This document shows, piece after piece, positions 2,863-41,785 of a stretch of DNA of 64,000 nucleotides (within the stretch, counting starts at the first letter, position 1; each line of letters opens with the position of its first letter). Source of the stretch: Shigella phage CM8. Under the pieces are notes generated by a model. That model worked only from the letters and a program-made list of their open reading frames with translations, made no database searches and was not told the DNA's origin. The stretch lies in sequence record MK962750, one strand, 5' to 3'. The position numbers were made by a program, and so were the translations under genes.

Positions 2863-4063
2863 ATTTTGTAATAATGTCAAACTGTTCTTTAAAGCAGAAG
2901 CTTGAATCTTGATGCTGATACAAAAATTCATATGCTTTTTCTCGCTCACGGTCATAAAGAGCTCGGTCAGATGACAGTTCTTTAATACGTTCAAATGTTG
3001 ATTCCATATCATTTTCATCAAACCAAATGATACCGCTATCATGCGAGGTCAAAGGAGTATTATCAACACGGAATTTTAAATTTTCGCCAGTAGATTTCCA
3101 AAATACCGGAATTGTTCCACATGCACCAAGCTCGAGATGAGTATATTCTAAAGAACGTTGTAGATATTTTTTATCCAACTTACTCAACTGATAACCAAAT
3201 CCGGATTTACTCATACGTTCAAGCATTTCGCTATTTACATAACGGTCAAGAATTTGCGTTGGCAAATTAGGAGCAATTTTAATTTGGTCTACTTGATGAA
3301 GACGATAATACTCGTATGGAATTCCTTTTTCTTTAATAGGAATGAACGCTGGAGAACGTTCCAGACCTTCCATAATAGTACTTAGTCCTGCAGGTTTAAG
3401 ATGTTTTTCGTGAAAATCAAACATCTGATAAAAACCTTTCCATGTAGTCGTACGACCAATCCAACGGTTGATATTCATGTTAATTTCAGAAACATCTTTC
3501 CAGTAGGTTGACCGAACCTTCGCAATATCCATAGGAGGCTGAAAGTTATATACTGTCGGTGCTTCTTCAATATCATCAAACAGAGAAACTGTTTCTGGAT
3601 ACCATTCTTTCATCAGAACTTTATTAAAATCGCCATTATCAGAATGACTAAAAATAACATCAGCTCGACGAACAGTTTCTTCTAATCCCAAATTTCGGCG
3701 CAAAGAAAGAGAAGAATGGTCATGTTGATAAACTACAACACGAACAGAAGGTTTAATGTTATCAATAATTTTTTTATAGTTATTAATAGTGTCTTCTTCA
3801 ACCGAAGTAGCAGGAACTGAATTGATAATTAGAATATCACAATCATTTACCAGCTTAAGTGTTTTATCATATTCTTTTGCCAATAAAACCGGAATTGAAA
3901 ATGATTTATAATCATGCGCGCAATTACGAGTAAATGATTTATCTTTAGCATAAACCAAAGTTACTTCATGACCATTTTTAATAAACCAATCACGTTGCTC
4001 AAGAGAAAATTTAGTTACACCACAACCTTCAAGACCTCGAGCCATAAAAATACATACTTTCAT
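2861..4063 (-). CDS. a-gt: DNA alpha-glucosyltransferase (hydroxymethylcytosine glucosylation)
   Basis: 400-aa ORF, MKVCIFMARGLEGCGVTKFSLEQRDWFIKNGHEVTLVYAKDK..., near-identical to recalled T4 alpha-gt (400 aa). Confidence 0.9.
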   Translation of the reverse strand: MKVCIFMARGLEGCGVTKFSLEQRDWFIKNGHEVTLVYAKDKSFTRNCAHDYKSFSIPVLLAKEYDKTLKLVNDCDILIINSVPATSVEEDTINNYKKIIDNIKPSVRVVVYQHDHSSLSLRRNLGLEETVRRADVIFSHSDNGDFNKVLMKEWYPETVSLFDDIEEAPTVYNFQPPMDIAKVRSTYWKDVSEINMNINRWIGRTTTWKGFYQMFDFHEKHLKPAGLSTIMEGLERSPAFIPIKEKGIPYEYYRLHQVDQIKIAPNLPTQILDRYVNSEMLERMSKSGFGYQLSKLDKKYLQRSLEYTHLELGACGTIPVFWKSTGENLKFRVDNTPLTSHDSGIIWFDENDMESTFERIKELSSDRALYDREREKAYEFLYQHQDSSFCFKEQFDIITK

Positions 4064-4513: not shown

Positions 4514-4796
4514 TCATATCCTCAATTTGCGATCTAGTAGTCTTCCAAAGAATACTGATGAGTTCATCGTTATATGGCTGTTTTAGAATATCCCGACTTT
4601 TCTTGATAGCATATTCGTATTGAGCAAAATTATTGTTTTCAGCTGCGATCTGAGCGTGCTTATAAAGACGATTCAGTTCGCGTTTGTTTTTAGACAATAA
4701 CTTATTTGCTTTTCTTTCTGCTTCAAGACGGTTCTTTTCTTCAATAGAAGAAATAAGCTTTTCCACTTCATCATTAATTTCGGGTTTATCAGTCAT
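4479..4796 (-). CDS. Hypothetical protein
   Basis: 105-aa ORF, coiled-coil-like and charged. Confidence 0.4.
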   Translation of the reverse strand: MTDKPEINDEVEKLISSIEEKNRLEAERKANKLLSKNKRELNRLYKHAQIAAENNNFAQYEYAIKKSRDILKQPYNDELISILWKTTRSQIEDMIDAYTRKIQAS

Positions 4797-4797
4797 A

Positions 4798-5016
4798 TTA
4801 TTTCTCTAATATAAAATAAAAATCATCATCTGTTAAATGATACCTGTAATTTAATTCTACACCATTAGATTTAAAAGCGGTATCATACGGATTTTCTGGA
4901 TCAATATCAATGTCAAGAGCTAAAACTTCCCTGAGATACATTTTAAGTAAATAGGGAATAGCTTCAACTTCAGGTATTTCTTCCAAGAATCCGGAGAGGT
5001 TAATCGTTAGCCTCAT
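4798..5016 (-). CDS. Hypothetical small protein
   Basis: 72-aa ORF immediately downstream of gene 55. Confidence 0.35.
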
Positions 5017-7307: not shown

Positions 7308-7448
7308 ATCAATTCCTCAAAGGTAATTCATATGTTAATAATACCACGGTTTGAACTTGTTGTAAACAACTTTGTGAAAATTATTTTAGGGAATGATAAG
7401 AAAGGAACGATAGCTTAGAATGGTAATATACAGAATGTGAGAAAGAAA

Positions 7449-7461
7449 GGCCCAGAGGGCC
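7449..7461 (-). terminator. Short GC hairpin followed by a T-rich tract downstream of nrdH
   Basis: ggccc-aga-gggcc inverted repeat; minus-strand RNA continues with uuucuuuc. Confidence 0.35.
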
Positions 7462-7465
7462 CGTC

Positions 7466-7774
7466 TTAATCTTCTATGATATCTCTATCATATCCAAGTG
7501 AAATGAGAGTTTCTTTGAAGTGTTTAATGTTCTTTTGTCTAGAATCATTAATGAAAATGACTGGATAACGAATGTTAAGAGATGTGAATCCAGCGCGTTT
7601 AGCAAGAGATACAATCAGTGGACGATCATACTCAATCTTACCGTTATTTGTAAGAACTTTATAGAAAGTAAAAGGAGCATTGAGCTCCTTTAGAAGTTTT
7701 GTAACTGATTGACATCCAGGACAACGACCTACTTCATCTGGAATTCCATAGACTTCAATCTTATTTTGTTTCAC
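7466..7774 (-). CDS. nrdH: Glutaredoxin/thioredoxin-fold redoxin (NrdH-like)
   Basis: 102-aa ORF with CPGC active-site motif; GTG start after AAGGA; lies beside nrdG/nrdD. Confidence 0.6.
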   Translation of the reverse strand: MKQNKIEVYGIPDEVGRCPGCQSVTKLLKELNAPFTFYKVLTNNGKIEYDRPLIVSLAKRAGFTSLNIRYPVIFINDSRQKNIKHFKETLISLGYDRDIIED

Positions 7775-7776
7775 AA

Positions 7777-7989
7777 CTATTCCTTACTAAGAGCAGCATT
7801 CAGCTTGTTAGTAATTTTATCCAGACGCTCATTGAACTCACTAGAAGATAAGCCTTTTTCTGGAGAAATTAAGCTAATCACGAAAAATACAACAATAAAA
7901 GGAATAAGGAAAATAGCTCCAACTGCCATAAACAGAAAGAATGTTACAGTTGTAAGAAAATCAGCTAAACCTTTACGAAATTTATACAT
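7777..7989 (-). CDS. Small membrane protein (one hydrophobic helix)
   Basis: 70-aa ORF with hydrophobic stretch FFLFMAVGAIFLIPFIVVFFVISLI. Confidence 0.4.
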   Translation of the reverse strand: MYKFRKGLADFLTTVTFFLFMAVGAIFLIPFIVVFFVISLISPEKGLSSSEFNERLDKITNKLNAALSKE

Positions 7990-29818: not shown

Positions 29819-30235
29819 TTAAATGTAAATATTTTTGCCGTAATACTTATACCAGTGTGGCTTCATTAAAATTTTTTCATCGAGTCGTTGTTGACTCAAC
29901 TTAATAGCTGATTTGCATGGATTATAATCATTTTTCCATTCTACTGGAATATCGCTGATGTCAGGAACTTCAGTATCTTTTATACTGAACCCGCGTTTTA
30001 AGCATTCCGTTATAATGTCCGATTGACGCTTTCGCAAAAATTCTAACTTATCGTAAAAGAAAGTAACATGACCAGAACCTAAAATAAATTTAGAAGATAT
30101 TTTAAAATCTTTAACGCGCTTACCGTTTGCCACATGCTTACGAACTATACCAAAAACACGCGGCAATTCACGGTATTCTGCGATTAAATGTTGATCAGCA
30201 AGTTCAGATACTAAAGTCAAATTAATACGAGTCAT
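29819..30235 (-). CDS. denV: Endonuclease V (pyrimidine-dimer DNA glycosylase)
   Basis: 138 aa, [29 protein letters not shown]..., near-identical to recalled T4 EndoV. Confidence 0.93.
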
Positions 30236-30294: not shown

Positions 30295-30825
<531 letters not shown>

Positions 30826-34328: not shown

Positions 34329-34465
34329 CGTTTTGTGAAAAAATTTTTAAAAAGTTTTGGGGAATTCTAGGGCAGGAAGGGGAAATCAAAGGATAGGATA
34401 ATATATTATAAAGGGTAGAAACTAAATGATGTCTAGAGAGGCCTGGAAAGGCCTAGATACCAAAA

Positions 34466-34489
34466 AGCCCCAACCTTTCGGTCGGGGCT
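34466..34489 (-). terminator. Intrinsic terminator (agccccaacc-tttcg-gtcggggct plus T5 on the minus strand)
   Basis: Inverted repeat seen in sequence; same element recurs at 35021-35044. Confidence 0.6.
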
Positions 34490-34496
34490 AAGAATG

Positions 34497-34970
34497 TTAT
34501 TTGATTTGTTTAGCAGACCAAATGCGATCTTTAATAATTTTTTGGATGTCTTCAACATACTCAAGAGAGTGAGCATGTGGATTATCTTTGAAACTATAAG
34601 CACGAGCTAGTTTTTGGCCTTCAGTTTTGATTACTAAAAGCTCTTTAAGGATAGCTTCATATTTGGAGATAATTCCTTTAACAATATTTTTTTCTTGTGC
34701 AGCTTTAGGATCTGCTTTAGGAGCAGGTTTACCCGAAGCCTTTGCAAAAGCAGCGCCAGTAGCAACTAAACTTTTCCAGGCCATACTAACTGCATTTCCC
34801 GTAAATCCTTCCGCTTTCATGTCGCGTGCGAACTGGAATCGCGATTCATCAGAAGCATCTTTATAAGAATATTTACCCGCTGCAATGGCTGCTTTTGCGA
34901 CAGCTTGAATTTCGGTGCTAGATGCTTCATTTAACACCGCTTCATTTAAAAATTGAGTATATGATTTCAT
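34497..34970 (-). CDS. Basic Ala/Lys-rich protein with capsid-targeting-like N-terminus; candidate internal (head-packaged) protein
   Basis: 157 aa; N-terminus MKSYTQFLNEAVLNE resembles the T4 internal-protein leader MKTYQEFIAEA; a late promoter lies upstream. Confidence 0.5.
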   Translation of the reverse strand: MKSYTQFLNEAVLNEASSTEIQAVAKAAIAAGKYSYKDASDESRFQFARDMKAEGFTGNAVSMAWKSLVATGAAFAKASGKPAPKADPKAAQEKNIVKGIISKYEAILKELLVIKTEGQKLARAYSFKDNPHAHSLEYVEDIQKIIKDRIWSAKQIK

Positions 34971-35006
34971 CTTATTTCCTGTTTTAATTCGTGGTTTTAA
35001 TATACT

Positions 35007-35014
35007 TATTTATA
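35007..35014 (-). promoter_or_regulatory. Late promoter (TATAAATA) upstream of the 34970 start
   Basis: Plus-strand tatttata at 35007-35014, about 37 nt upstream of the ATG. Confidence 0.55.
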
Positions 35015-35020
35015 CTAAAA

Positions 35021-35044
35021 AGCCCCAACCTTTCGGTCGGGGCT
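35021..35044 (-). terminator. Intrinsic terminator, second copy of the agccccaacc/gtcggggct hairpin
   Basis: Same sequence as 34466-34489, followed by a T-run on the minus strand; closes the stable-RNA region. Confidence 0.55.
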
Positions 35045-35054
35045 AAGCCTTGCG

Positions 35055-35350
35055 GCAACCTTGTCGGGGTTCCACCTGCTAAGGCAAGTGTTTGTACGAA
35101 ACGCCGGGATTCGAACCCGGTTATTAAGCAGTTGACGCTACTCAATATTTTTAAAAGGCCATATCTCGACCATATCCGAACGTTCCGTCAAAAACGCTAC
35201 TCGGCTTACGGCAAAGATATTTCCTCGAATCGATAATTCGGTGCGCCGTTTCTGCTGTGATGTAAGAGGGCATCAATAAACGCAAAGATTATTAACGCAA
35301 TTCCTTACTCAGGGAACATCAGTCCGACGACTTACCGGTAGCGACCCGGT
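35055..35350 (-). ncRNA. Putative stable small RNA region, tRNA-like in part
   Basis: ~300 nt without an ORF between a terminator and a protein gene; canonical T-arm ccgggTTCGAATcccgg (reverse complement of 35103-35120) and a 7-bp acceptor-like pairing (cggaacg/cgtttcg), but the D-to-T distance is too long for a standard tRNA. Confidence 0.3.
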
Positions 35351-35353
35351 TTC

Positions 35354-35704
35354 TTAATATTCTTTTAAAGCATCAATCTGTTTACGGCGTTCACGCCATA
35401 AATCAATTGCTTCATACGCGGATTCAACATTTCGAATTGGACGGCATTTATATAAAGATTTGTGATTTTGATATTGCGTAGATAACGGAATTTTATCTAA
35501 AAGGTCTTTACGTTCAAAGTATTCGTAACCATCTAAGCCAAATGAACGATTTTTGAGAAATTGCCAATGACCAAATTCGTTTTGAATATAAATATAATCC
35601 GCATGTTGATAAAGTAAATTAATTTCACGAAATGAGATATGTTTTTCATATTCATTGAAGTAAAATGTTAAATCATGAACTACTAAATAAACATTACCTT
35701 TCAT
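35354..35704 (-). CDS. Hypothetical protein inside the RNA-gene region
   Basis: 116 aa, ATG start, aromatic-rich. Confidence 0.45.
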   Translation of the reverse strand: MKGNVYLVVHDLTFYFNEYEKHISFREINLLYQHADYIYIQNEFGHWQFLKNRSFGLDGYEYFERKDLLDKIPLSTQYQNHKSLYKCRPIRNVESAYEAIDLWRERRKQIDALKEY

Positions 35705-36155: not shown

Positions 36156-36806
36156 TTATATATTGTTAATTTGATTTAGAATTCTTTTTGCTTGAGTATG
36201 ACTTACGCCAATATGCTTAGCATATTTAGACAATTCGCCACGTTTAGAAAAATCATATAATTTAGAAATTTCTATTCTTCTTTTTCTTTCATCCGCAGAA
36301 ACTTTTGCTTCGTTTGCTTTTGCTATTTTACGTTTAGCTTCTTGAGAATGAGTTTTACCAGCAAAGCCATTCTTCATTAATCCATTTGAAGACCATCCTT
36401 TTAATTTTCCGTTAGAATGTGCCTTTTTAACACCCAATGAAATTAATTCGCGTTGCTGATCTGTCATAGGATAATTATTTATATGATCCCATCCACCTTC
36501 ACCTCCAAGTTTTAAATTATACACATCTGGTCTATTTAAAAACTCTTCTGTGACAATATTTTTCTCGGCTTCAAGCATAGATTCTTTATCGTCAAAATAC
36601 TCTAATATTTCTTTAGAAAAATTTTCTATACCATATTTATCTTGGGCTCTTTTTAATAATTTACCAGAACCCATATATCCATCATCTAAATTTTCGGTAG
36701 AATGCACACCAATATAAATTTTATTATTAATTTTATTTGTTATTTTATAAAGATAAAAATGCATATCAGTCCCTAATAAAGAACTGAGCGTCTCACGACG
36801 AGTCAT
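36156..36806 (-). CDS. segB: GIY-YIG homing endonuclease, SegB-like
   Basis: 216 aa; GIY-YIG motif YLYKITNKINNKIYIGVH...GYMGSG; inserted in the tRNA cluster; alternative start at 36764. Confidence 0.7.
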   Translation of the reverse strand: MTRRETLSSLLGTDMHFYLYKITNKINNKIYIGVHSTENLDDGYMGSGKLLKRAQDKYGIENFSKEILEYFDDKESMLEAEKNIVTEEFLNRPDVYNLKLGGEGGWDHINNYPMTDQQRELISLGVKKAHSNGKLKGWSSNGLMKNGFAGKTHSQEAKRKIAKANEAKVSADERKRRIEISKLYDFSKRGELSKYAKHIGVSHTQAKRILNQINNI

Positions 36807-36982: not shown

Positions 36983-37591
36983 TTATTTATTACGTGAAAA
37001 AGACTGTTCTATCAATTCTGGACACTTTCGTTCTATCCATTTTCTAGCTTTTTGTGGGCTTATACCTATTATTTTAGCAGCTTTACTAACCCATCCAAAT
37101 TTAGAATAATCGATTTTAACTAATTCTTCGTAAATTTCATCAGTTAAAATCTTTTCATTAATATTTACCAGTAAATGATATAATTTATTATCATTAGCAA
37201 TTTTAATGAATCTTTTATAGTTTCCGCCTTTACTTAAACCTAATGAAGTAATTGCAGATGATATAGTAGCCGAATTTAATAGTGCGTTTAAAATTTCTTC
37301 ATCACTAACATTATAACGCTTTTTATTATTTTTAATATTTTTACCAGCAAAAGTATCAGTTTGCGAATGGCAGTTTGGACATAATAATCTTAAATTTGAT
37401 TTAAGATGATTTTTGTTATTTCCATCAATATGGTCTAATTGCAGAACAATATGCTTATTTTGCCATTTTGAAATTTTACAAATTGCACACTCATATGGAA
37501 AAATATTTTCTTTTATTATTTTGTCTTTCAGCTTTCCTGTACTAAAATTTGGATGTTTTCCTTCAAAAATTTCAGCTAATTTAGTATCCAT
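36983..37591 (-). CDS. Free-standing HNH homing endonuclease
   Basis: HNH/zinc motif CAICK...HIVLQLDHIDGNNKNHLKSNLRLLCPNCH; ATG at 37589-37591 chosen over the ORF-track TTG; C-terminal helix-turn-helix-like region. Confidence 0.7.
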   Translation of the reverse strand: MDTKLAEIFEGKHPNFSTGKLKDKIIKENIFPYECAICKISKWQNKHIVLQLDHIDGNNKNHLKSNLRLLCPNCHSQTDTFAGKNIKNNKKRYNVSDEEILNALLNSATISSAITSLGLSKGGNYKRFIKIANDNKLYHLLVNINEKILTDEIYEELVKIDYSKFGWVSKAAKIIGISPQKARKWIERKCPELIEQSFSRNK

Positions 37592-37690
37592 AATATGATT
37601 CCCAATTATTAACAAAGGCTCTCTAACAAGAACCCTTGATGATAGAGGGTATTAATCAGTGCGGTATGAGTTAATAATAACAAATAATTC

Positions 37691-39066: not shown

Positions 39067-39127
39067 TTTATTCTCCTCAGTAGCTGATAGGGTAATAGTA
39101 TCACTACTAAAACCCAATGTAAACAAT

Positions 39128-39352
39128 TTATTCAACGCCAGCGGCTTTCAAAAGTTTCTTAAGATTGGCAACACCTTGAGCAGAAAATGTGACCTTGCCA
39201 CCTTTTTCACTGATAGAACCAACCAATTTAGCAAGTTTATCATTAGGAATTTTTTTAAAATCAGCCAATGTTCCATCAAAGGTTTTTGAAACAAAAGGCA
39301 GTTCGTCTTCGCGTCTTTTAGCTTCTACAATAAATTCTTGATATGTTTTCAT
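39128..39352 (-). CDS. Internal (capsid-targeted) protein A with T4-type leader MKTYQEFIVEA
   Basis: ATG at 39350-39352 gives MKTYQEFIVEAKRREDELPF... (74 aa); leader matches the T4 internal-protein capsid-targeting sequence as recalled. Confidence 0.65.
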   Translation of the reverse strand: MKTYQEFIVEAKRREDELPFVSKTFDGTLADFKKIPNDKLAKLVGSISEKGGKVTFSAQGVANLKKLLKAAGVE

Positions 39353-39385
39353 TTTAGTTTCCATTTGAGTGTTTGTTTTGATAGG

Positions 39386-39418
39386 GTAATAGTATCACTA
39401 CTAAAACCCAATGTAAAC
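39386..39418 (-). promoter_or_regulatory. Early-promoter-like module (repeated before each gene of the internal-protein locus)
   Basis: tgtaaac at 39412-39418 and gtaatagtatcac at 39386-39398; near-identical copies near 39090-39125, 39745-39790, 40070-40120, 40360-40392, 40720-40765 and 41045-41095. Confidence 0.5.
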
Positions 39419-39436
39419 AACTTTGTGAAAAATTTA

Positions 39437-39724
39437 TTACAAAAGATTTTTAGCAATAATCTTGAGATGTGCCGCAGAAATGTGTTTAGCTTTAAACAAC
39501 GCAGTTTCTTCAGCAGGAGAGATAACGATTGTAGCACCATCCTTTTTAGCAGACCACCCATCGCCTAGGTAAACAGTACCTTTGATTTCTTCGCCATCAA
39601 CCAGACTAATCATTGGTTTACCTTCTCGTCCTTTATTTGCTTTAATAACTTCAGAAGTAAGAGTAGCTTCGGTAATAGTAGAAACCGGGGTAGTTGTAGA
39701 AGTAAATTCTTTGAAAGTTTTCAT
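39437..39724 (-). CDS. Internal (capsid-targeted) protein B, copy 1 (leader MKTFKEF)
   Basis: 95 aa, MKTFKEFTSTTTPVSTITEATLTSE...; ITE motifs fit prohead-protease sites; differs from copy 2 only in the last ~9 residues. Confidence 0.6.
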   Translation of the reverse strand: MKTFKEFTSTTTPVSTITEATLTSEVIKANKGREGKPMISLVDGEEIKGTVYLGDGWSAKKDGATIVISPAEETALFKAKHISAAHLKIIAKNLL

Positions 39725-39796
39725 TTTATTTTCCTAATTAATTTTGATAGGGTAATAGTATCACAACTAAAACCCTATGTAAACAACTTTGTGAAA

Positions 39797-40054
39797 TTAT
39801 TTTAAATCTTCTAATCGTTTCTTCATCTTAGAACCGTTCTTAGCGATTTCGCCTGCATCAGAGCATAATGCTAAAAGCGCTTTAACTTTAGTTTGGTCTC
39901 CTTTAAAAGATGAAGGATCAACAGCAGCAGCAAGTTCTTTAATACGAGAGAAAAGACGCTCAGCTTCAGCTAAAGCCATTCCAAGCTTTACTTCCATACC
40001 GCGGGAAGATTCAGTAATAGTAGTTTTTGTAGCAAACTCTTTGAAAGTTTTCAT
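39797..40054 (-). CDS. Internal (capsid-targeted) protein C, copy 1 (leader MKTFKEF)
   Basis: 85 aa, MKTFKEFATKTTITESSRGME...; identical to 40771-41028. Confidence 0.6.
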   Translation of the reverse strand: MKTFKEFATKTTITESSRGMEVKLGMALAEAERLFSRIKELAAAVDPSSFKGDQTKVKALLALCSDAGEIAKNGSKMKKRLEDLK

Positions 40055-40126
40055 TTTATTTTCCTAATTAATTTTGATGAGGTAATAGTATCACTACCTC
40101 ATCAGTATGTAAACAACTTTGTGAAA

Positions 40127-40698
<572 letters not shown>

Positions 40699-40770
40699 TT
40701 TATTTTCCTAATTAATTTTGATAGGGTAATAGTATCACAACTAAAACCCTATGTAAACAACTTTGTGAAA

Positions 40771-41028
40771 TTATTTTAAATCTTCTAATCGTTTCTTCAT
40801 CTTAGAACCGTTCTTAGCGATTTCGCCTGCATCAGAGCATAATGCTAAAAGCGCTTTAACTTTAGTTTGGTCTCCTTTAAAAGATGAAGGATCAACAGCA
40901 GCAGCAAGTTCTTTAATACGAGAGAAAAGACGCTCAGCTTCAGCTAAAGCCATTCCAAGCTTTACTTCCATACCGCGGGAAGATTCAGTAATAGTAGTTT
41001 TTGTAGCAAACTCTTTGAAAGTTTTCAT
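40771..41028 (-). CDS. Internal (capsid-targeted) protein C, copy 2
   Basis: 85 aa, identical to 39797-40054. Confidence 0.6.
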   Translation of the reverse strand: MKTFKEFATKTTITESSRGMEVKLGMALAEAERLFSRIKELAAAVDPSSFKGDQTKVKALLALCSDAGEIAKNGSKMKKRLEDLK

Positions 41029-41100
41029 TTTATTTTCCTAATTAATTTTGATGAGGTAATAGTATCACTACCTCATCAGTATGTAAACAACTTTGTGAAA

Positions 41101-41785
<685 letters not shown>

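Follow-up and report, generated by a model that had tools for sequence, protein, structure and literature searches.

Internal proteins (Ips) are the first phage proteins in the host cytoplasm, and their leaders are known as recombination modules. IPI, one of these proteins, carries a 19-residue propeptide and has a mixed alpha/beta fold. The class is defined by a common capsid targeting sequence (CTS) on otherwise unrelated bodies (PMC3012670). According to a review of Black's work, the first 10 residues of IPIII suffice for packaging and the prohead protease gp21 cuts after L/I-X-E (PMC9026906), and the CTS mutagenesis described in its section 2.6 attributed targeting mainly to residues 4 and 7 and processing to residues 8 and 10. 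Ip1-3 were reported in 2025 to be all specific inhibitors of GmrSD-type restriction, in a paper that mentioned only two Ip loci (PMC12373910). In T4-type phages, the repeats of PeSL (promoter-early/stem-loop) mobile regulatory cassettes flank single accessory genes (PMC2839356, PMC4122927).

Here we analyzed a gene on the minus strand of a 64,000-nucleotide stretch of Shigella phage CM8 (MK962750), referred to below as the window. From its sequence, the gene probably represents an internal-protein family not described before, situated at a third locus, the terminator of the small stable RNA gene rnaC.

A 555-bp cassette at the rnaC terminator

The gene and its flanking elements are arranged as follows, in the direction of transcription.

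35048..35352, minus strand: rnaD and rnaC small stable RNA genes, placed by base-for-base alignment with T4 (NC_000866)
35012..35047, minus strand: upstream 36-nt direct repeat with the rnaC intrinsic-terminator hairpin (35044-35021 plus T-run)
35014..35007, minus strand: late promoter motif of the T4 type, TATAAATA, its end 36 nt upstream of the ATG
34977..34980, minus strand: Shine-Dalgarno-like AGGA, 6 nt before the ATG, read from the sequence
34497..34970, minus strand: candidate internal protein CDS, 157 aa, ATG start, 17.2 kDa, pI 9.46
34457..34492, minus strand: downstream 36-nt direct repeat with the identical terminator hairpin (34489-34466 plus T-run)

The ORF at 34497-34970 is the same gene as RB32ORF133c and g140 of phage fD1 and belongs to PHROG 2280, a family without functional annotation, the HMM of which covered residues 1-157 with E = 2.2e-60. 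In comparison with RB32, 22 of the 27 base changes were located at third codon positions, and the 26 differing codons were divided into 22 synonymous and 4 non-synonymous ones. A tblastn search with the protein found it in 510 phage records, and the sampled annotations were all "hypothetical". Given the synonymous excess, the number of records and the end-to-end match to PHROG 2280, the ORF is a real gene, and purifying selection on it is clear. The rnaC/rnaD anchor was present in 799 records, 510 of which contained the ORF while about a third lacked it. The 1-kb stretch around the gene showed 98-99% identity to the phages teqhal, slur02/04, wV7 and AR1 (Tequatrovirus, T4-like coliphage), and the protein of vB_EcoM_NBG2 was 100% identical to the ORF protein.

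The three-way alignment of the window, T4 and RB32 showed a precise 555-bp insertion/deletion polymorphism at the rnaC terminator. T4 and T2 have a single hairpin copy at the locus and lack the ORF, and the window and RB32 share the order hairpin, TATAAATA, RBS, ORF, hairpin. The cassette thus defined consists of the promoter motif, the RBS, the ORF and one hairpin, and is situated between direct repeats that agree at 35 of 36 positions with a spacing of 555 bp, the downstream one starting 4 nt past the stop codon of the ORF. The earlier note on this DNA had described the gene as bracketed by two copies of the same terminator hairpin, and this was confirmed, as the two 24-nt G+C-rich stem-loops AGCCCCGACCGAAAGGTTGGGGCT are identical and each is followed by a T-run. 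The flanking hairpin is retained in JS98 and in Mosigvirus a20. In a20 the cassette is present with the promoter variant AATAAATA and is flanked on each side by that phage's own form of the hairpin. Directly upstream, outside the gene, rnaD and rnaC close the tRNA/sRNA operon; Rfam detected tRNAs only in this region and has no model for rnaC or rnaD.

The motif of the late promoter claimed in the earlier note was found, at a distance of 36 nt rather than 37 nt from the start codon, and the "tatttata at 35007-35014" taken there for an additional site is the same TATAAATA motif seen on the plus strand, so that there is one promoter motif. The motif begins with TAT, the three bases with which the upstream repeat ends. 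The octamer is not rare in the AT-rich window (16 observed against 11.7 expected), and by our own arithmetic the chance of a correctly oriented copy in the spacer of ~70 nt is ~0.006. What gives the motif weight as evidence is where it lies in the spacer and the fact that RB32, JS98 and fHe-Yen9-01 conserve it.

The known internal-protein genes are controlled differently. T4 ipI, ipII and ipIII have sigma-70-type early promoters (GTTTAC...TA(c/g)TAT) with stem-loop units and no TATAAATA, and the same was found for Ip4/5/7/9 of RB32 and for the window's own ip genes. Unlike every ip gene examined, the ORF has a late-promoter motif only, and this motif lies behind a terminator. As all canonical ip genes examined have early promoters, the late motif, although compatible with a head component, is a departure from the Ip habit and not a shared trait. 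In the window, seven 45-nt units (GTTTACA...stem-loop...GATACTAT) with an early promoter and a stem-loop, resembling PeSL, were found between the ip genes at 39085-41093. Like a PeSL element, the cassette at the rnaC terminator has short conserved repeats around a single accessory gene, which can mediate insertion, deletion or exchange by recombination; unlike PeSL, its bracketing repeat is a terminator hairpin and its promoter is of the late type, with only TAT inside the repeat.

The minus-strand gene order is that of T4, namely 57B, the ip cluster, the tRNAs, rnaD/rnaC, and e.8 through e to denV. The gene had been placed outside the internal-protein locus near 57B, and it indeed lies ~4.2 kb from the ip cluster adjoining 57B and 3.7 kb from e. 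The cluster occupies 39128-41028 and 57B 41101-41559, with tRNA genes and two homing-endonuclease genes between the cluster and the ORF. The window phage has no ip gene between denV and e, a context that was counted in favor of the Ip reading.

Several other features were observed in these neighborhoods. A 974-bp tandem duplication affects the ip cluster at 39366-41346 (repeat units 39366-39665 and 40340-40639), so that IPI is present at 39437-39724 and 40411-40698, the second copy with an altered C-terminus, and an Ip5-like 85-aa gene at 39797-40054 and 40771-41028. In addition to the full-length 57B there is a truncated one (40127-40372). The duplication may reflect either a real amplification of these genes or an artifact of the assembly. 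At the e-proximal locus, which holds ipII and ipIII in T4 and Ip4 in RB32 and T2, denV (29819-30235) adjoins e (30295-30789), with no ipII, ipIII or Ip4. In the T2 record (AP018813), the Ip4 gene at 7430-7903, which encodes 157 aa beginning with MKTYQEFITEA, bears the name "valyl tRNA synthetase modifier". Several neighboring small ORFs in the e region have evidently also received wrong names by transfer, among them "tail sheath monomer" and "major capsid protein". The tRNA cluster of the window contained 6 detected tRNAs (no Pro, no Gln) compared with 8 in T4; a GIY-YIG segB-like ORF (36156-36806) lies between tRNA-Ser and tRNA-Gly, and an HNH-motif, homing-endonuclease-like ORF (36983-37615) lies upstream of tRNA-Leu. 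A 116-aa ORF (35354-35704, minus strand), which had no match in Pfam or NCBIfam, is inserted between tRNA-Arg and rnaD, which abut directly in T4. In T2, EcT2_00138 occupies the equivalent position with the same length of 351 bp and is annotated as similar to an RB51 protein; judged by position and length, it is probably homologous to the 116-aa ORF.

Leader, protein body and family

The protein, which begins with MKSYTQFLNEAVLNEA..., can be divided into the following parts.

34941..34970, minus strand: predicted CTS, residues 1-10 (MKSYTQFLNE), with predicted gp21 cleavage after E10 (L8-N9-E10/A11, the slash marking the cut)
34926..34940, minus strand: second L-X-E/A motif, residues 11-15 (AVLNE), a possible redundant cleavage site
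34758..34919, minus strand: predicted three-helix N-terminal domain, residues 18-71, from AF2 and the family alignment
34710..34748, minus strand: Pro/Ala/Lys-rich linker, residues 75-87, predicted by AF2 to be disordered
34509..34709, minus strand: long helical hairpin, residues 88-154, predicted by AF2

The ORF had been noted to open with a T4-like CTS leader, and our analysis bore this out. All four CTS determinants (Y4, F7, L8 and E10) are present and are followed by Ala. When the first 11 residues of every frame in the window that starts with ATG and is 40 aa or longer (578 in all) were scored against known CTSs, the ORF leader ranked second with a score of 38 (mean 0.4, sd 8), next to Ip74 with 55, the Ip5-like gene with 37 and the authentic IPI with 36, and the best unrelated frame reached 22. 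The likeness of the leader to a CTS is beyond chance. At the sequence level, two L/I-X-E prohead-protease motifs are present near the N-terminus, L8-N9-E10/A11 and L13-N14-E15/A16, and the same L-X-E/A duplication is found in JS98 orf135. The predicted N-termini of the cleavage products are A11 (AVLNEASSTEIQAVAK) or A16 (ASSTEIQAVAK), and the corresponding uncleaved tryptic peptide is SYTQFLNEAVLNEASSTEIQAVAK.

Like T4 IPII and IPIII (MKTYQEFIAE/A), Ip4, Ip7 and Ip9, the protein has a leader of 10 residues in which positions 4 and 7 are aromatic and positions 8-10 read L/I-X-E, and the next residue is small. Unlike these proteins, it has a duplicated LNE/A and the residues S3, T5, Q6 and L8, which are the four positions (3, 5, 6 and 8) that differ from the canonical MKT(Y/F)(Q/K)EFI. 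Q6 replaces the usual E, which occurs in other family members.

In addition to the leader, the composition of the protein resembles that of the class. It is small (the class ranges over 10-22 kDa), basic and Ala/Lys-rich, as in IPII, IPIII, Ip4, Ip7 and Ip9; this property had been pointed out before and was verified, since the content of 17.2% Ala and 13.4% Lys and the pI of 9.46 are close to those of IPII and IPIII (for T4 IPIII, 14.0% Ala, 13.5% Lys and pI 9.54). The gene also shares with those of this group its non-essential nature, its presence/absence polymorphism and its position in the variable region from 57B to e, while its site at the rnaC terminator lies outside both the 57B-proximal and the e-proximal ip clusters.

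The AF2 model of the protein (pLDDT 76.6) is all-helical with two domains. Residues 1-17 were predicted with low confidence to have no stable structure except for a short helix at residues 4-8 (mean pLDDT 55 at residues 1-10). The best-conserved core of the family, GKYSYKD-SDESRFQFARDMKAEGF, lies inside residues 18-71 in the alignment, and the linker, with a mean pLDDT of 53 at residues 81-90, varies in length within the family. One internal L-K-E motif was found at residues 108-110, within a confidently predicted helix. The proposed life cycle is like that of T4 IPI (PF11634), in which a propeptide directs packaging, gp21 cuts behind E and the protein is injected along with the DNA. Unlike the mixed alpha/beta fold of IPI, the predicted fold is all-helical, and no sequence relationship between the two proteins was found; the window itself encodes IPI at 39437-39724, together with its duplicate copy.

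The earlier note had suggested a comparison with IPIII-type proteins, and the protein is not of this type. Comparison by BLASTP with T4 IPIII, T4 IPII and RB32 Ip4 gave no similarity, including in the mature part, so that the protein represents a new family. The Pfam scan gave nothing at E ≤ 1 except a chance match at 0.12, and none of the families IPI_T4 (PF11634), Phage_T4_IpII (PF26874) and DUF7412 (= Ip4) was matched, while the controls were recovered (window IPI, 7e-54; Ip4, 6e-96). The NCBIfam search returned chance-level matches only, the PDB profile search none below E = 2, and the structural-neighbor search none that was informative.

The family is small and includes several genera; an exhaustive HMMER search of 1.8 billion proteins yielded 10 representatives at 50% identity. 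Two large HMMER matches, P0017 and P0018, were dropped, as they were due to low-complexity Ala/Lys stretches and their Pfam matches were sub-threshold or single-repeat. In an 11-sequence alignment extending down to 26% identity, 7 columns were invariant and 7 nearly invariant; among these 14 columns, M1 and L8 were invariant and F7 nearly so. The relatives with 26-50% identity begin with MKTYNEFLNES, MKSYAEFLTEQ, MLKFNEFLAEG, MLEYSEFLKEL, MKFKEFLAEA and MITFNDVLVEG, and all family leaders fit aromatic-x-x-(F/V)-L-x-E. In the distant relatives from other T4-like genera, the leader is better kept than the remaining protein. Two tandem paralogs of fHe-Yen9-01 have 11 of 16 leader residues in common, with no other significant alignment in BLASTP. 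These adjacent genes had been considered as unrelated bodies with a common leader, a reading that was dropped when they were connected as distant paralogs via JS98 orf135 and P0016. Because the bodies are distantly homologous, the conservation of the leader in the family could partly reflect common descent.

The closest described counterparts at the same site are the unnamed hypothetical proteins JS98 orf135 (Dhakavirus; 29% identity, E = 1e-9) and the 189-aa protein of fHe-Yen9-01. Both genes lie, as the ORF does, after the tRNA/sRNA genes and ahead of e.8, with the hairpin and TATAAATA, and both proteins have the nearly identical double leader MKTYNEFLNESVLNEA. Their layout of leader, N-domain, PAK-linker and helical hairpin is that of the ORF protein, with a different N-terminal domain and a longer linker. 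The C-terminal "DTPDLY" of the two proteins is lost or changed to "DNPHAH" in the ORF.

Packaging, function and alternative readings

Given the loading tag at the N-terminus of a small, basic and putatively late gene, membership of the internal-protein class is therefore probable. We consider it likely that the ORF encodes an unnamed member of the T-even Ip class, that is, a late, CTS-tagged, gp21-processed and injected protein, carried by the 555-bp cassette at a third locus. The earlier note had proposed a CTS-bearing internal head protein, and each sequence-level test run agrees with that proposal, which is thereby supported.

For this protein we infer a course that leads from late transcription through CTS-dependent packaging, cleavage and injection to an anti-defense function. 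Transcription would be late only, from the gene's own TATAAATA, because the rnaC terminator is proposed to insulate the gene from upstream transcription. The leader MKSYTQFLNE would function as the CTS and bind the gp22 scaffolding core during prohead assembly, and gp21 would then cut after E10, possibly also after E15, within L-N-E/A. The released protein of ~15.5-16 kDa, basic, Ala/Lys-rich and all-helical, would stay associated with the DNA inside the mature head and enter the next host by ejection. By analogy with Ip1, Ip2 and Ip3, it would there most likely neutralize a host defense at DNA entry; sequence, profile and structure searches gave no similarity in support of an anti-defense role. 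The self-contained cassette would make the rnaC-terminator site a third Ip locus besides those at 57B and e, and its flanking 36-nt direct repeats would allow gain and loss of the cassette by recombination.

A nearly identical protein has been detected in a virion preparation. Gp140 of Yersinia phage fD1 (HE956711), which is identical to the ORF protein at 156 of 157 residues, was classified as particle-associated (PPAP) at the strict threshold (two or more peptides, mean spectral count 2 or higher) by LC-MS/MS of ultracentrifuge-purified virions (PMC8309999, Table S3). The specificity of this proteome was low, since 113-137 of the 277 phage proteins (41-49%) and 672 host proteins were present in it, with thymidine kinase, DenV, lysozyme and NudE among the "PPAPs" (PMC8309999). 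The fD1 data prove the expression and co-purification of Gp140 and support its packaging weakly. Together with the sequence determinants, they underlie the proposed steps from late transcription to retention with the DNA. The fPS-90 paper contains no proteome.

If the protein is packaged, it could still serve as a DNA-associated head protein that neutralizes charge or condenses DNA instead of acting as an anti-defense effector. A content of 13% Lys, the basic nature and the Pro/Ala/Lys linker would suit such a role, as would the contacts of internal-protein lysines with DNA phosphates in T4 heads (PMC3012670). We regard it as unlikely, since all three T4 Ips have specific anti-restriction targets (PMC12373910) and the presence/absence polymorphism and rapid divergence of the gene resemble those of an arms-race gene; moreover, condensation of DNA and an anti-defense role are compatible with each other.

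The same mass-spectrometric signal would be carry-over if the ORF encoded a late cytoplasmic protein that is never packaged, with a CTS-like N-terminus that is a relic of recombination or is kept for another reason, for example translation initiation. The many non-virion proteins in the fD1 preparation, a promoter type unlike that of canonical ip genes and the behavior of Ip leaders as recombination modules would be in keeping with this explanation. It is nevertheless quite unlikely, as the residues kept at 26-50% identity are exactly those for targeting and cleavage while adjacent leader positions vary freely, the leader DNA is no recent copy of the ip leaders of the window (the amino acids differ at 4 of 10 positions), and a strictly late, terminator-insulated cassette suits a virion component.

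Very unlikely is a prohead-core accessory protein like gp67/gp68, which would enter the scaffolding core, play a role in assembly and be degraded or expelled at maturation: the CTS-like leader, the additional internal L-K-E at residues 108-110, putative late expression alongside the head genes and the coiled-coil-like helical C-terminal hairpin of the AF2 model would fit it, but the gene is dispensable in nature, being missing from T4, T2 and about a third of the rnaC/rnaD anchor records, the ortholog was found in mature virion preparations, and the single internal motif is part of a confidently predicted helix.

A probable third Ip locus and its significance

The reading of the ORF as an internal protein can be extended to the whole site. 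The third locus may hold an old, diversifying superfamily of two-domain, late, CTS-tagged, injected proteins that counter a defense unlike the targets of Ip1-3, spanning Tequatrovirus, Mosigvirus and Dhakavirus as well as T4-like phages of Yersinia, Klebsiella and Enterobacter, with the cassette as the unit of gain, loss and swap. We put this joint reading forward tentatively, as a possibility that is on balance doubtful.

CTS-like leaders were also observed elsewhere in relatives. Among the tRNA genes of two T4-like Yersinia phages, fHe-Yen9-01 (4700-4858) and phiR1-RT (3309-3467), lies an ORF of 52 aa whose start, MKTYIEFINEI..., looks like a canonical CTS. Situated outside the classical loci, it possibly encodes another mini internal protein that has escaped annotation. 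In fHe-Yen9-01, a 78-aa ORF at 210-446, starting MKTYVEFLSEA, lies between a dNMP kinase gene and a 57A-like gene, which suggests from its leader that the distribution of CTS-tagged genes may extend well beyond the two named loci.

The annotators of RB32 named Ip4, Ip5, Ip7 and Ip9 in that genome, and RB32ORF133c was not among them. In the literature covered, which did not include some key older papers, no paper was found that names the gene as an Ip; the locus tag RB32ORF133c had no match, and the CTS strings matched a vaccine-engineering paper only.

The ORF would add to the class a widespread unannotated Ip candidate, which some 510 of roughly 800 related genome records contain. Its variant leader would broaden the known sequence tolerance of the CTS, a sequence employed in engineering T4 for protein delivery and vaccines. 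The candidate would be a ready test case for a new pair of defense and counter-defense, with relevance to the prediction of host range for therapeutic T4-like phages.
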